Below are positions 24,795 through 30,709 of a stretch of DNA of 64,000 bases, piece by piece. Source of the DNA: an uncultured Paludibaculum sp. (lineage in GTDB: Bacteria > Acidobacteriota > Terriglobia > Bryobacterales > Bryobacteraceae). The notes under the pieces were generated by a model. That model was not told where the DNA came from. It worked only from the letters and a program-made list of their open reading frames with translations, and did no database searches. Every line of letters starts with the position of its first letter. The first letter of the stretch is position 1. Location of the stretch: NCBI RefSeq assembly GCF_963665245.2, contig NZ_CAXXEY010000003.1, forward strand, positions 1,083,895 through 1,147,894, written 5' to 3'. The translations under genes were made by a program, and so were the position numbers.

Positions 24795-25208
24795 CTAGAC
24801 GGCTTTGGCGAAACCTTCGACGCGCTCCCTGATCTGATCGCGGATTCGTCGGAACGCGGCTCTCCTCACTTCTTCCGGTCCGTCCACAGCGGCCGGATCT
24901 TCAAAGCTCCAGTGAATGCGCTCCACCTTACCTGGCAGAATGGGGCAGCTCTCTTTCGCGTTGTCACAGACAGTGAAAACGTAACGGAATTCGTGGCTCA
25001 GAAATTCATCGACCGACTTCGATCGATGATTGGATATATCGATGCCCAGTTCCGCCATGACGGCGATGGCTTCGGGCCGGACCAGGCTTGGTCTCGTCCC
25101 GGCGCTGTGAACGTCAAAGCGGTCTCCAAGATAGTGGCGGAAAAGGCCCTCTCCCATCTGGCTGCGGGCCGAGTTGCCGGTGCAAAGCACGAGAATGCTG
25201 GGCTTCAT
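24795..25208 (-). CDS. arsC: Arsenate reductase, thioredoxin-coupled (LMW-PTP fold)
   Basis: CTGNSARSQM P-loop; TVCDNAKESCP redox Cys pair; HWSFEDPA. Confidence 0.9.
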   Translation of the reverse strand: MKPSILVLCTGNSARSQMGEGLFRHYLGDRFDVHSAGTRPSLVRPEAIAVMAELGIDISNHRSKSVDEFLSHEFRYVFTVCDNAKESCPILPGKVERIHWSFEDPAAVDGPEEVRRAAFRRIRDQIRERVEGFAKAV

Positions 25209-25211
25209 GGC

Positions 25212-25706
25212 TTAGGGCTTCTTGATTTCCTTCTCGTAGTACTCCCGGAATCGCTTGTTGATGTCGTCCCGGACCGCGCGGAACACTGTCAGCTTCTCGG
25301 CATCCGTCCCGCTTGCCTTTGCGGGATCCGGGAATCCGATGTGTGTGCGCACTCCGACCTTGCCACGGAAGGCAGGGCAGGACTTGTCCGCGTCGTCGCA
25401 TACCGTAATCACGTAGTCGAAGGACAGGTTGATGAATTGGCTGACACTCTTTGGAGTCCCGCCAGAGATGTCGATACCCACTTCGCGCATTGCCTGGATC
25501 GCAAAAGGATTGACCCGAGCAGCGGGCTTTGTGCCCGCGGAGAATACCTGCAGTCGGGGATCAAACGACTCCAGGAAGCCTGCTGCCATTTGGCTCCTGG
25601 CCGAATTGCCAGTGCACAGCACAAGAACACGAGCTTTGCCCGCGTCCGCCGCGGGCATCGTAGCTGCGAGCAGACACACCAATACCATCAGTTGCGCGAT
25701 GCGCAT
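25212..25706 (-). CDS. arsC: ArsC/LMW-PTP paralogue with N-terminal signal peptide
   Basis: MRIAQLMVLVCLLAATMPAADA leader, then CTGNSARSQM and TVCDDADKSCP. Confidence 0.85.
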   Translation of the reverse strand: MRIAQLMVLVCLLAATMPAADAGKARVLVLCTGNSARSQMAAGFLESFDPRLQVFSAGTKPAARVNPFAIQAMREVGIDISGGTPKSVSQFINLSFDYVITVCDDADKSCPAFRGKVGVRTHIGFPDPAKASGTDAEKLTVFRAVRDDINKRFREYYEKEIKKP

Positions 25707-27676: not shown

Positions 27677-27720
27677 CATAAGGACTCGCTTATGTAATGC
27701 TACATAAGCAATCTCTTATG
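27677..27720 (+). promoter_or_regulatory. Twin palindromic operator CATAAG-N6-CTTATG
   Basis: Exact copies at 27677-27694 and 27703-27720; the second ends in the ATG of the ArsR-family gene. Confidence 0.8.
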
Positions 27721-28086
27721 CATCATTCGCCCAATACAGTCTTCAAGGCGGTTGCCCATCCCGCGCGCCGGAGAATCATCGACCTGCTGTCGCATTCGCC
27801 GTGTACGGTCAAGGAGCTGACGGCGTCTTTCACGATGTCTCAGCCAGCCGTCTCCCAGCATCTTCGCGAATTGCGCGACGCCGGGCTCGTTGCCTCCGAG
27901 ACGTTCGGTCCTGAACACCGCTATCGGCTGATCGCAAATCCCCTGCAGCAGGTGTTCGAGTGGACGGCGCAGTACAAACACTTCTTCGATCCCTCCGGCC
28001 ACGCATGGTCGTTTACGCCGGCTGCACCGGACCCCAAGCAGCCCATCGGCGGCAAAAGGAAAGGTGGTCCGCGCAATGGCAGTTGA
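27718..28086 (+). CDS. ArsR/SmtB-family transcriptional regulator (no Cys metal site evident)
   Basis: FKAVAHPARRRIIDLL, MSQPAVSQHLRELRDAGLV; alternative start 27697. Confidence 0.9.
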   Translation: MHHSPNTVFKAVAHPARRRIIDLLSHSPCTVKELTASFTMSQPAVSQHLRELRDAGLVASETFGPEHRYRLIANPLQQVFEWTAQYKHFFDPSGHAWSFTPAAPDPKQPIGGKRKGGPRNGS

Positions 28087-28579
28087 AGGTTCGACGCCTG
28101 ATCCCGGAGTGATCGTGCCTCATCTGGTAGTGCGCGACATGCCGGAGGCGCTTGATTTCTATACCAGCGCGTTCTCGGCCCGCGTTCTCTATCGCTCCGT
28201 CTCGCCGAGTGGTCAAGGGGAGCACGTCCACCTGCAAGTCTGGTCGTCGCTCATCCAACTCTCCACGGAGGAGCCTGACTACGAGCATCGCCGGATGGCC
28301 GGTGCGTTCCTGGCCTCGCCGGAGACCCTTCGAGGGACAAGTTGCGTCTTCCAGGTCGCTGTTCCGGACGTTGACGCAGCCTATCAACGGGCAGTCGATC
28401 ACGGAGCACTTCCAGCCATGCCGCCGGTGGATATGTTTTGGGGTGATCGCTATGGCTGGGTGCGCCATCCCTTTGGCCACATGTGGGCGCTTTGTACCAT
28501 TCAGGAAGTGCTGACGCCCGATGAAGTTGCCGCTAGGATGCGCGCATTCTCTTCTCAGATGAAAGGACATGAGGAATGA
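28076..28579 (+). CDS. VOC/glyoxalase (PhnB-like) protein
   Basis: PHLVVRDMPEALDFY, MFWGDRYG..PFGHMW. Confidence 0.88.
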   Translation: MAVEGSTPDPGVIVPHLVVRDMPEALDFYTSAFSARVLYRSVSPSGQGEHVHLQVWSSLIQLSTEEPDYEHRRMAGAFLASPETLRGTSCVFQVAVPDVDAAYQRAVDHGALPAMPPVDMFWGDRYGWVRHPFGHMWALCTIQEVLTPDEVAARMRAFSSQMKGHEE

Positions 28580-29103
28580 TCAAGGAACTGATTTCGGCCG
28601 TGATGATCTGTGGTGCGCTCTGCGCGCAGCAGCGGCCTGCCCAAAGCTCATCGGCCGATTCATGGCAGGCGTTGCGGTTCCTCGTAGGTACGTGGGAGTC
28701 GAAGACGCACGGCGGATCGGCCAACGCCGAGAGCTCCGGAACCTACACCTTTCAATTGGAGTTGCGAGACCACGTCCTTGCCCGGCACGCCGCGCCGGTT
28801 GCCTGTAAAGGCCCTGCCGGGTTCGATTGCCAGCATGGGGATCTGCTTTACATCTACCAGGACGCTCCGGGGCAGCCGCGGAAGGCGATCTACTTCGACA
28901 ATGAAGGGCACGTGATTCACTACACCGTCACCACCCCTGAGCCGAACATGGCTGTCCTCCTTTCCGATCCAGCACAACCCGGCCCCCAGTTCCGGCTCAC
29001 CTACGGGCTGAAGGGCGGCGTGATGGAGGGAAAGTTCCAGATACGCGTGCCGGGGCAGGACGACTTCCGACCCTATTTGGAATGGGGCGGAGCGAAGAAA
29101 TGA
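28576..29103 (+). CDS. Secreted beta-barrel-like hypothetical protein
   Basis: Signal peptide; LRFLVGTW, AIYFDNEGHVIHY; ATGA overlap with the VOC gene. Confidence 0.75.
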   Translation: MIKELISAVMICGALCAQQRPAQSSSADSWQALRFLVGTWESKTHGGSANAESSGTYTFQLELRDHVLARHAAPVACKGPAGFDCQHGDLLYIYQDAPGQPRKAIYFDNEGHVIHYTVTTPEPNMAVLLSDPAQPGPQFRLTYGLKGGVMEGKFQIRVPGQDDFRPYLEWGGAKK

Positions 29104-29259: not shown

Positions 29260-29997
29260 TCAGCGGTCCGCAACAAACTCCGCCGCGACAACTGCCGGAT
29301 GCTTCGTGCGGGCGTTCCGAAGCGTCCGCATGATCGTGGCGTTGCGAAATCCCGCGGCGCGGAATTCGTCAAGGAATGCACCTGCATCCTTCGCGCCGGC
29401 AATTCACGAGAACCAGTTATCGTTGCCGGACCTTAGGTGCTCAGGCAAGGGGGCACTCAGCACCAGTTCCGCACCCGAAACATGGCCTCCTGGACGAACC
29501 ACGCGGCCCAGCTCACGGAATATCTCTTCTCGAAATGGGTTGAGGTTGAAAATGCCATTGACCAGGGCGACATCGACCGACGAATCGGGGAATGGCAGTT
29601 GCTCGGCGGAGGCGCGCACAAACGACACCTGCGAAAGCCCGAGCCGCCTGGCGGAACGTCGTGCCCGGTCGAGCATGCCCTCACTAAAATCGATTCCGAC
29701 CACGCGACCTCTTCGCCTCACTCGCTGCGCTGCGATGAGGCTGTCCAGACCGGCACCGCAACCCAAATCGATCACGTCCAGTCCGTCACGGAGGGGCGCC
29801 TGCAGAGAAACGCTCGACACACCGGCGAAGGCAGCGACGGCTTCATCCGGAAGTGCGCGCAACAGATCATCCGGGTATCCAAGGTCGCGAGCAAAGACGG
29901 CACCTACGGGAAACGGATGTCTCCCGTCAGGGGCGTCGGCCGCGGCCGAGTAGGCCCTGCGCACTGACTCCCGCAACTCGTGTGAGCTCGTCGTCAC
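29260..29997 (-). CDS. ArsM-like SAM methyltransferase, probable selenoprotein (UGA at 29404-29406 read as Sec)
   Basis: DLGCGAGLD, GIDFSEGM; ...DNWFS-TGA-IAGAKDAGAFLDEFRAAGFRNATIMRTLRNARTKHPAVVAAEFVADR*; UGA aligns with the ArsM C-terminal Cys of xCxGGA; probable GTG start 29997. Confidence 0.85.
29371..29406 (-). other. Bacterial SECIS-like hairpin
   Basis: mRNA: UGA-12 nt-AAGGA UGC [AGGU] GCA (U) UCCUU; 8-bp stem with one bulged U and a G-containing apical loop. Confidence 0.75.
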
Positions 29998-30034: not shown

Positions 30035-30709
30035 TCATCTCGGCGCCTCGCCCACGGCCACAGGCAATCCATTGGCCCGCCAGTCGGGGACTCCATCTTC
30101 CAGCCGGACAGCCCGAAAACCCTGAGAGCGCAGTAGTCTTACAGCCTCGACCGCCAGGACGCAGTAGGGGCCCCGGCAATAGGCGACGACTTCCCGGTCA
30201 CGCGGGAGCATCGTGAGCTGCGTTTCGAGTTCCTTGAGTGGAATGGACAGGGCACCGGGAATATGGCCCGCCCGATACTCTTCTCTCGGGCGAACGTCCA
30301 GCACGATCACTTCGGCCCGGCGTACGCGGTTCAGCAGTGCCTCTTTGTCGACCGGTTCCATCGACCCGCGATCGGTGTTGAACTGCCGGACAATCGCGTC
30401 GATTTCCGCGAGGCGGCTCTCGGCGAGCGTGCGCAGTCCCCGGTAGAAATCGCAGACCTGCTCGTCGGCGAGGCGATAGGTCACAAACACGCCTTCCTTC
30501 ACCGTCTCGACCAATCGAGCCGAATGTAGGACTCGAAGATGCTGAGAGGCATTGGCGACGCTCAATCCGGCTTCGCGCGCAAGCGCCTCAACTGTTCGCG
30601 GCCCCTGGCACAAGAGGTCCAGCAGTTCCAGTCTGGGCGGACTACCAACCGCCCTGCCGATGCGGGCGAGTTGCTCATAGACGGCTTTTTTTAGCGACGT
30701 TCCAGCCAT
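30035..30709 (-). CDS. ArsR/SmtB regulator fused to a rhodanese domain
   Basis: SPPRLELLDLL..SVANASQHL HTH; DVRPREEYRAGHIPGA and YCRGPYC rhodanese loop. Confidence 0.93.
   Translation of the reverse strand: MAGTSLKKAVYEQLARIGRAVGSPPRLELLDLLCQGPRTVEALAREAGLSVANASQHLRVLHSARLVETVKEGVFVTYRLADEQVCDFYRGLRTLAESRLAEIDAIVRQFNTDRGSMEPVDKEALLNRVRRAEVIVLDVRPREEYRAGHIPGALSIPLKELETQLTMLPRDREVVAYCRGPYCVLAVEAVRLLRSQGFRAVRLEDGVPDWRANGLPVAVGEAPR

Follow-up and report, generated by a model that had tools for sequence, protein, structure and literature searches.

What can a methyltransferase of the ArsM type do when three of the four catalytic cysteines of its fold are missing and the fourth is replaced by a residue that UGA encodes? 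The question is raised by a gene on the minus strand of the window, that is, the whole stretch of 64,000 nucleotides analysed here, from an uncultured Paludibaculum sp. of the Acidobacteriota (contig NZ_CAXXEY010000003.1). A sequence-only reading of this locus had pointed to a selenocysteine (Sec)-containing relative of ArsM that lacks the other ArsM cysteines, and had suggested that such an enzyme might methylate through a Se-methyl intermediate or act on another soft metalloid or thiol substrate. Its residues set the window enzyme apart from canonical As(III) methyltransferases. It belongs to a large clade in which the same cysteines have been lost, and the substrate tentatively favoured here is selenium or sulfur delivered by a protein carrier.

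The coding sequence lies at 29260..29997 on the minus strand, begins with GTG at 29997, ends with a TGA stop at 29260..29262 and specifies 245 amino acids, with Sec at position 198. From the GTG the frame is uninterrupted except for an in-frame TGA (29406..29404), after which 47 codons lead to the stop at 29262..29260. The span 29404..29997 originally assigned to the gene thus covers the part up to the UGA, and the gene itself runs on to 29260. Alignments with orthologues begin at residue 1-8 of the GTG-initiated product and finish 47 residues past the UGA; an ATG at 30096 was rejected as the start, as it would make the gene overlap its upstream neighbour and the orthologues align from GTG 29997. 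The gene sequence is identical in four independent sequencing runs, with no variant at the UGA codon. The read-through product is a class I S-adenosylmethionine (SAM)-dependent methyltransferase (Pfam Methyltransf_31, Methyltransf_25 and Methyltransf_11, E 1e-22 to 1e-28) in which the SAM-binding motif I (DxGxGxG) reads DLGCGAG. This motif holds Cys80 (codon 29758..29760, minus strand), which is, as the sequence-only reading had stated, the only cysteine of the protein. Cys80 is also the only conserved cysteine among 74 full-length orthologues, the set used for all orthologue conservation figures below, where it is kept in 97%. Many wider relatives have serine at this position (GSG), and Cys80 is therefore no catalytic requirement.

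The case for decoding of the internal UGA (29404..29406, minus strand) as Sec198 is comparative. Relatives were gathered from a representative library, using the 197-residue N-terminal part as query, and from one metagenome scan with an alignment (A2); a contig scan with a single-protein query picked up, by way of the DVIDLGCG pattern, mainly generic methyltransferases, and a single locus of use (L001) came from it. The resulting 82 related loci (L001, L081 and L085-L164) are 44-79% identical to the window protein. Codon 198 is TGA in all 82, whereas the terminal stop is mixed (TAA in 31, TAG in 30, TGA in 12); constraint to TGA is thus confined to the internal codon. The 47-codon tail that follows the UGA (IAGAKDAGAFLDEFRAAGFRNATIMRTLRNARTKHPAVVAAEFVADR; 29263..29403, minus strand) is conserved at the protein level in all complete orthologues, with the consensus IAGAKEGGAFLxEFRAAGFxxAxxLRTxRNARTKNPxVLAAEVxAxR, and aligns with the CLGGA...GF region of ArsM. 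Its entropy at codon positions 1, 2 and 3 (0.69, 0.59 and 1.61) follows a coding-type pattern. Cysteine occupies position 198 in 20 cluster representatives of the same clade, and likewise in plasmid genes of Haloprofundus salinisoli and Chelatococcus sp. CO-6. The possibility that the terminal TGA (29260..29262) encodes a second Sec, of the kind found in UXPK-star proteins, was ruled out, as orthologues carry TAA or TAG there.

The RNA just downstream of the UGA adds to this picture. A hairpin resembling the apical part of a SECIS (selenocysteine insertion sequence) element, AAGGAUGC-AGGU-GCA(U)UCCUU, is found at 29371..29391 on the minus strand by folding and covariation; it starts about 16 nucleotides past the UGA, its AGGU loop starts 23 nucleotides past the U of the UGA, and its stem contains a bulged U. 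Over 76 distinct sequences the 7-bp stem is 94.4% paired, with changes on both sides in four of the seven pairs and 13 compensatory cells, and the observed pairing was reached by none of 500 shuffles, figures to be read with the caveat that the stem overlaps conserved codons (KEGGAFL). The single-sequence fold of the window hairpin is not significant (z-score -0.95) and was dropped as evidence for a SECIS; only the comparative analysis backs the hairpin, which is accordingly taken as supporting evidence for Sec that is not decisive alone. The stem comes in two forms. In the window and in L085-L088 it is one base out of register and carries the bulged U (AAGGAUGC/GCA-U-UCCUU), and in the remaining sequences, about 70, it is a GGAAGG/CCUUCC stem without a bulge.

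Taken together, the invariant TGA, the conserved tail, the covarying hairpin and the cysteine homologues at the same position establish, by comparative criteria, that the UGA is decoded as Sec and that the gene encodes a genuine, translated selenoprotein. Most of the close matches in the protein library stop two residues past an invariant tryptophan, that is, at the UGA. A few relatives from the same clade (P0004, P0121, P0031 and P0101) show glycine, arginine or glutamate at the Sec/Cys position in their database translations; the glycine might stem from a genetic code that reads UGA as glycine, or it might be a real substitution.

The significance of Sec198 becomes apparent when the window protein is aligned by HMMER to the solved structures of CmArsM and CrArsM (PDB chains), which are its best PDB sequence matches (E about 1e-16). 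The Sec segment, FS-U198-IAGA, falls opposite GE-C224-LGGA of CmArsM, and Cys224 corresponds to Cys206 of human AS3MT (hAS3MT). Opposite FYGC72GS of CmArsM the window protein has FAGV60SS, with Val60 (codon 29818..29820, minus strand) at the site of Cys72 (hAS3MT Cys61), and opposite SNC174VCNL it has VNG148IFNL, with Gly148 (codon 29554..29556, minus strand) at the site of Cys174 (hAS3MT Cys156). Both replacements had been picked out by the sequence-only reading, which described FAGVSS at the N-terminal cysteine region and VNGIFNL in place of SNCVxNL, and the structural alignment agrees with it on each. Since Cys80 of DLGCG is the sole cysteine of the read-through protein, there is no counterpart of Cys44 (hAS3MT Cys32) either: no cysteine is found anywhere N-terminal of motif I, and the alignment reveals no equivalent cysteine elsewhere. 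Of the four catalytic positions of ArsM, the window protein thus retains the Cys224 site, as Sec198, and has lost those of Cys174, Cys72 and Cys44.

What these losses would mean can be gauged from the known enzymes. In CmArsM each of the four cysteines is necessary for conversion of As(III) to MAs; the arsenical is bound by Cys174 and Cys224, and electrons are supplied by Cys44 and Cys72 through a disulfide cascade (PMC6138428). The first methylation requires Cys44 and Cys72, and both steps require Cys174 and Cys224 (PMC6138428, PMC3877260), in line with the inactivity of the human C156S and C206S variants in both steps (PMC3877260). The number of cysteine ligands falls as methylation proceeds, from three for inorganic arsenic (iAs) to two for the monomethylated species (MMA) and one for the dimethylated species (DMA) in hAS3MT (PMC3877260). 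In the ArsM cycle the one-ligand species DMAs(III) is held by Cys224 alone (PMC6138428), and the site can therefore serve as a single anchor. By analogy, an enzyme that retains the Cys224 site only would by itself be able to hold just a one-ligand species. The earlier suggestion that the canonical multi-thiol cycle is unlikely here is thus strengthened: none of Cys44, Cys72 and Cys174 has a counterpart, every orthologue shares this lack and, as aligned, the window protein cannot run the canonical ArsM cycle using its own residues alone.

This arrangement is not a peculiarity of one gene. A survey of the 150 nearest cluster representatives at 50% identity separates two types of domain whose motif states covary. 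About 123 domains, here called 'NG-type' after their N-G motif, combine F-x-G-[VT] with N-G; 73 of them end at the Sec position and 20 have cysteine there. Another 25, of canonical type, combine G-C-G-N with S-N-C-V; position 198 is readable in 23 of these, and 20 have cysteine there. The residue at the Cys174 position is glycine in the 123 NG-type domains and cysteine in the 25 canonical ones, whereas at the Cys72 position valine is found in 71% of the NG-type clade as against cysteine in 72% of canonical relatives. Among the orthologues Asn147 and Gly148 are invariant, and Sec198, Phe57, Gly59, Val60, Asn147, Gly148, Trp195 and Phe196 are each conserved in at least 95%. Further near-invariant residues are His27, Phe29, Asn228 and Arg230. 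This survey thereby confirms that the equivalents of Cys72 and Cys174 have been lost throughout a clade, most of whose members appear to use Sec. One locus (L164:3133-4900, plus strand) contains a single frame with two tandem NG-type domains, the first of the window type and the second of the L001 type, each with an in-frame TGA at the Cys224-equivalent site; its product is probably a double selenoprotein.

Structure and family models agree with this division. An AlphaFold 2 model of a Cys-form homologue (P0016, 44% identical to the window protein) has a mean predicted local distance difference test score (pLDDT) of 95.5, and its top 13 Foldseek matches in the PDB are all CmArsM, CrArsM or hAS3MT, with query-based template-modelling scores (TMq) of 0.57-0.71. 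The fold is thus that of ArsM in kind, minus the C-terminal domain. On the NCBIfam arsenite methyltransferase model NF008823 the window protein obtains 164.1 bits, short of the 263-bit cut-off; other NG-type proteins reach 178-242 bits, canonical relatives (P0073, P0090 and P0150) 286-320 bits, and the model thus separates the two types. Collectively these comparisons indicate a large clade, descended from enzymes of the ArsM/AS3MT fold, that has apparently lost three of the four catalytic cysteines and keeps the Cys224 site. Current names do not reflect this. Cys forms in cultured organisms are called only 'methyltransferase domain-containing protein' by the NCBI annotation pipeline (PGAP), and so is a Sec-form relative (P0002, MDP6775597.1) whose NCBI record ends at the UGA. 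Among the NCBIfam families no curated model was found for the stand-alone single-Sec form.

Set against the reference ArsM/AS3MT enzymes (CmArsM 4FS8, 4FSD and 6CX6, CrArsM 5EVJ and human AS3MT 8XT7, with NF008823/PRK11873 as family models), the window protein shares the N-terminal helical region, the Rossmann SAM domain with motif I and the start of the arsenic-binding domain, and its W-x-x-C/U-x-x-G-A motif lines up with the arsenic ligand Cys224. It differs in its length, 245 residues as against about 350-400, in the absence of the large C-terminal domain, in the absence of Cys44, Cys72 and Cys174 equivalents and in the presence of Sec in place of the catalytic cysteine. ArsM-family selenoproteins as such are known already. 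A Sec 'arsenite methyltransferase' family with a UxxG motif has been on record from Fomenko et al. 2007 onwards, as listed in later literature (PMC13188914, PMC9312934, PMC2398784), and the window protein resembles it in having Sec at UxxG (here U-I-A-G), paired with the catalytic cysteine of AS3MT; in the reviews among these, loss of the other cysteines in that family (reference WP_011987699.1) is not mentioned. NCBIfam also describes double and triple selenoproteins, namely methyltransferase/UXPK-star (NF047649), ArsM/AhpD (NF041537) and ArsM/DUF2284 (NF041536), credited to Haft & Tolstoy 2025 in PMC13188914. These three are the best models for the window protein (191.5, 181.9 and 152.3 bits, respectively, over model positions of about 10-230), and their whole-protein cut-offs (510, 460 and 575) are not reached. 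An NG-type Sec protein (P0030) scores 368 bits over positions 1-203 of NF047649, and at least the UXPK-star family is therefore built on the NG-type domain; NF041537 and NF041536 appear to be so as well. Unlike all three, the window protein is stand-alone, with a single Sec and without an AhpD, DUF2284 or UXPK tail. What is described here is this stand-alone single-Sec form and its clade, which is poorly annotated among the records checked.

Precedents for ArsM-like enzymes with fewer cysteines are provided by TtArsM from Thermus thermophilus, a published single-cysteine As(III) methyltransferase (PMC8649762), and by the two-cysteine BlArsM (Huang et al. 2018, as cited in PMC8649762). TtArsM keeps another cysteine (C77), lacks the Cys224 site and has no Sec; with C77 at a different position, it does not represent the same solution as the window enzyme. 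BlArsM, which also has no Sec, reportedly keeps both the Cys174 and the Cys224 equivalents. Beyond the ArsM family, MddH, MddM1/2 and TPMT/INMT are SAM-dependent enzymes that methylate H2S, methanethiol (MeSH) or selenium species (PMC11445057, PMC12904073, PMC10844679). Their descriptions set them apart from the window protein, on other branches (UbiE/UbiG-type or TPMT folds) and with no covalent Cys or Sec anchor described; the analogy is possible if the substrate is sulfur or selenium.

Gene context offers some guide to the substrate. Immediately upstream of the methyltransferase gene, at a distance of 37 nucleotides and on the same strand, lies a gene (30035..30709, minus strand) for a fusion of an ArsR/SmtB-type helix-turn-helix (HTH) domain with a rhodanese domain (Pfam HTH_5 and Rhodanese), which matches an NCBIfam metalloregulator model and, more weakly, the TsoR, BigR and rhodanese (seleno)protein models. 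Such a gene is directly upstream in 5 of the 56 orthologue loci for which upstream DNA is available, and the protein is probably both the regulator and the operon partner of the Sec methyltransferase. In the HTH part one cysteine (LLCQGP) lies close to the DNA-binding helices and another (EQVCDFY) in the last helix, a spacing probably more like that of BigR and SqrR, which sense persulfides, than that of an As(III)-binding ArsR. The loop of the rhodanese domain reads C-R-G-P-Y-C-V. Acr2-type arsenate reductases carry a CX5R motif, and an Acr2-type role was rejected because the loop does not contain it. One relative (L088) shares both the ArsR-rhodanese and the phosphorylase neighbours with the window, and there the genes for the regulator and the methyltransferase are separated by one for a NifS-like cysteine desulfurase; L131 and L148, too, have NifS-like genes in the vicinity.

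In other relatives the neighbours vary. The commonest (nine loci) is a PhnD-type binding protein accompanied by PhnC and PhnE, and a radical SAM protein of the Rv1681 family adjoins orthologues in six loci; the literature searched on TIGR04553 and Rv1681 yielded nothing useful. A TIGR04282 'arsenosugar biosynthesis glycosyltransferase' (174.6 bits, cut-off 134) occurs in the clusters of L145, L149 and L111. Two of these loci (L145:6703-14421 and L149:4917-12387) contain a same-strand cluster of, in order, the Rv1681-family radical SAM protein, the Sec methyltransferase, a NUDIX hydrolase, a membrane protein, the TIGR04282 glycosyltransferase, a family 2 (GT2) glycosyltransferase, a radical SAM/SPASM protein and a large membrane protein, which may together make an organo-arsenic or organo-selenium compound.

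The NG-type domain is also found fused to other domains, namely AhpD/CMD, TusA, cysteine desulfurase, ArsR HTH and DUF2652, with weak matches, below the Pfam cut-offs, for fusions to HMA and MerC. The gene for the TusA fusion is followed by a DsrE gene. A fusion protein of 608 residues (P0001; L167:3839-6779) consists of an AhpD/CMD domain, a canonical ArsM domain in which the three cysteines are all kept and an NG-type domain that stops at the Sec position. Immediately before the gene for this fusion protein lies one of the SBF family, the Pfam family that includes the Acr3 arsenite pump. On a plasmid of Haloprofundus salinisoli (L165:5946-8613) genes for a CMD/AhpD-family protein, OsmC, a Cys-form NG-type protein and a second class I methyltransferase form an apparent operon. 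In a second, unrelated case an OsmC gene lies directly upstream of a Sec form (P0064, L170). The gene for P0016 is near genes for PHO4 and a low-molecular-weight (LMW)-phosphatase/ArsC-like protein. The element common to all of these contexts is a cysteine-based carrier or redox protein.

These observations suggest how a single-Sec enzyme might work. The selenolate of Sec198 would capture a soft-atom substrate X through a single Se-X bond, in what is the arsenic pocket of ArsM, and the lone pair of X would then attack SAM's methyl group. A thiol or redox partner from outside would attack the Se-X(S) bond, freeing the methylated product and regenerating the selenolate. Candidates for the partner are thioredoxin, glutathione (GSH) or the AhpD, OsmC, rhodanese, TusA and NifS-type proteins that are fused or adjacent in relatives. 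Selenium in place of sulfur would provide tighter one-point binding and faster exchange. Because cysteine-based carrier and redox proteins are common to all contexts, the ligand and redox cysteines of ArsM may in effect have been outsourced to partner proteins. That the window enzyme acts on another soft substrate, as had been suggested, is plausible, with a sulfur/selenium relay and arsenic genes both represented in the supporting context. For this particular gene the candidate put first as X is selenium or sulfur at the sulfane level, brought by NifS- or rhodanese-type carriers and released as methylselenol or methanethiol. Such a substrate would fit the operon partners of the orthologue group (a rhodanese, NifS and a selenate-like binding protein), and a probability of roughly 0.35 is attached to this reading. 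Still more tentatively, the NG-type proteins may represent an unrecognised class of 'single-chalcogenolate' SAM methyltransferases, in which the atom to be methylated is held by one Se-X or S-X bond and brought and removed by separate carriers.

Several considerations weigh against a selenium or sulfur substrate. Every relative characterised so far methylates arsenic, the ArsM family offers no precedent for methylating a persulfide or perselenide held on the enzyme, and no biochemical data were found for any member of the NG-type clade. The known H2S and MeSH methyltransferases MddH and MddM need no covalent anchor (PMC11445057, PMC12904073). The signal from neighbouring genes is weak and mixed, and the majority of orthologue loci have none of the neighbours listed above. 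The best model for the PhnD-type protein, 'putative selenate ABC transporter', is matched with 218 bits, below its cut-off of 250, and the radical SAM matches also fall below curated cut-offs. Part of the context points to arsenic, namely the canonical-ArsM fusion next to an SBF/Acr3-family gene, the TIGR04282 glycosyltransferase and two ArsC-like genes 3.5 kb from the window gene. Concerning the Sec machinery (selA, selB, selD and tRNA-Sec), the 64-kb window contains no tRNA of any kind, and the proteins scanned, which represent about two thirds of its genes, include no sel product.

The arsenic-related points are accommodated by the strongest of the alternatives, in which the enzyme is a specialised arsenical methyltransferase. 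Sec198 would bind a one-ligand arsenical, such as DMAs(III) or a dialkyl species, and catalyse a last methylation, for example of DMAs(III) to trimethylarsine; in a variant, As(III) would be bound with its other two ligands contributed by a partner CxxC protein or by GSH. The As(V) intermediate would be reduced by an outside dithiol (AhpD, OsmC or thioredoxin). This possibility is considered almost as likely as a selenium or sulfur substrate. The nearest relatives by sequence and by structure are all As(III) methyltransferases, and the one residue retained is that which holds DMAs(III) in the canonical cycle (PMC6138428, PMC3877260). The joining of AhpD, canonical ArsM and an NG-type Sec domain in P0001, behind an SBF-family gene, fits such a role, as do the clusters with the arsenosugar-type glycosyltransferase in L145, L149 and L111 (the first two with two radical SAM genes each) and the neighbours of P0016. 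In the window itself there are two ArsR-family genes and a tandem pair of thioredoxin-type ArsC-like genes of the pI258 family (24795..25208 and 25212..25706, minus strand), recognised by their CTGNSARSQM and VCDxAxxSCP motifs.

The pair scores 139.5 and 111.5 bits on NCBIfam TIGR02691, under the cut-off of 174.3, and the product of the second gene begins with a hydrophobic, signal-like segment. The link between the ArsC-like pair and the methyltransferase is nevertheless doubtful. The 3.5 kb that separate the pair from the methyltransferase gene include an oppositely oriented gene block. In 447 kb of DNA around 80 orthologues, tblastn with one Acr3-family query (from L167) and with ArsC-type queries (from L168 and the window) had no match, and the pair was rejected as a conserved link; canonical-ArsM queries matched over the same DNA only in L159 and in L164, where the match is really the second NG-type domain. 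ArsR-family regulators, moreover, sense many things besides arsenic, and an arsenical substrate leaves the links to NifS, TusA, DsrE and rhodanese unexplained unless these act as mere thiol partners.

A less probable view holds that the protein is an ordinary ArsM that methylates inorganic As(III), with small thiols such as GSH standing in for the missing cysteines. The overall fold and the Cys224 site are kept, As(GS)3 is the preferred substrate of ArsM (PMC6138428), and TtArsM, in spite of lacking the canonical arsenic site, yields MMA and DMA when assayed in vitro with GSH and confers resistance to arsenite (PMC8649762). On the other hand, cysteine mutants have been reported to be inactive on As(III), hAS3MT C156S being inactive on both iAs and MMA (PMC6138428, PMC3877260), and the window protein falls about 100 bits under the curated NF008823 cut-off. 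Valine and glycine have become fixed as the replacements throughout a large clade, a sign that selection there differs, and an ordinary ArsM is accordingly considered improbable.

It is still harder to accept a ping-pong mechanism, the Se-methyl intermediate of the sequence-only reading, in which SAM would methylate Sec198 to Se-methyl-selenocysteine and the methyl group would then be passed to the substrate. Selenolates are excellent nucleophiles, and homology with Cys224 would place that of Sec198 only a few angstroms away from the methyl group to be transferred from SAM. A selenoether is, however, a poor methyl donor, and proteins that form S-methylcysteine, such as Ada and MGMT, are stoichiometric dead ends, which makes the scheme chemically unattractive. 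The Cys forms of the clade would do worse still, and the gene context gives no hint of a methyl relay; such a mechanism is regarded as very improbable. Finally, the notion that the TGA is a true stop ending a truncated methyltransferase of 197 residues, or marks a pseudogene, draws on the P0002 record and the gene calls of most close relatives, which end at this codon, and on the lack of tRNA-Sec and sel genes in the parts of the window examined, and is already contradicted by the comparative data: TGA in 82 of 82 loci as against mixed stops at the true end, a coding-type tail of 47 residues, a covarying hairpin at SECIS distance, cysteine in homologues and alignment with the catalytic cysteine of ArsM.

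Three further genes of the window lie between the ArsC-like pair and the methyltransferase, on the opposite strand to both. The second ArsR-family regulator (27697..28086, plus strand) overlaps the start of a VOC/glyoxalase-family gene (28064..28579, plus strand), 3' of which is a gene for a protein of 175 amino acids without a family match (28576..29103, plus strand). The C-As lyase ArsI typically has a vicinal cysteine pair; the VOC/glyoxalase protein lacks one and has no NCBIfam match, and it was rejected as an ArsI.

For the family as a whole, the clade amounts to an experiment of nature: of the four cysteines that serve catalysis in ArsM, three are gone and the last has been upgraded to selenium. 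Knowledge of its function would test the disulfide-cascade model of metalloid methylation and might expose a capture-methylate-release chemistry that depends on thiol partners outside the enzyme. There is also a practical aspect. Close relatives are mostly called as ending at the UGA, and relatives could pass for arsM in metagenomic surveys of arsenic methylation; a clade signature of F-x-G-V, N-G and W-x-x-U/C-x-x-G-A would correct both the truncation and the misnaming. The gene is common in metagenomes from soil, rhizosphere, sediment and peat, where it may contribute to the volatilisation of selenium, sulfur or arsenic. If a class of single-chalcogenolate methyltransferases does exist, it could provide soil bacteria with an unrecognised route to methylselenol and dimethyl selenide (DMSe), methanethiol or trimethylarsine, and loci that combine an Rv1681-type radical SAM protein with an arsenosugar-type glycosyltransferase could make an organo-arsenic or organo-selenium metabolite. 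The use of Sec would then tie synthesis of the full-length enzyme to the supply of selenium.

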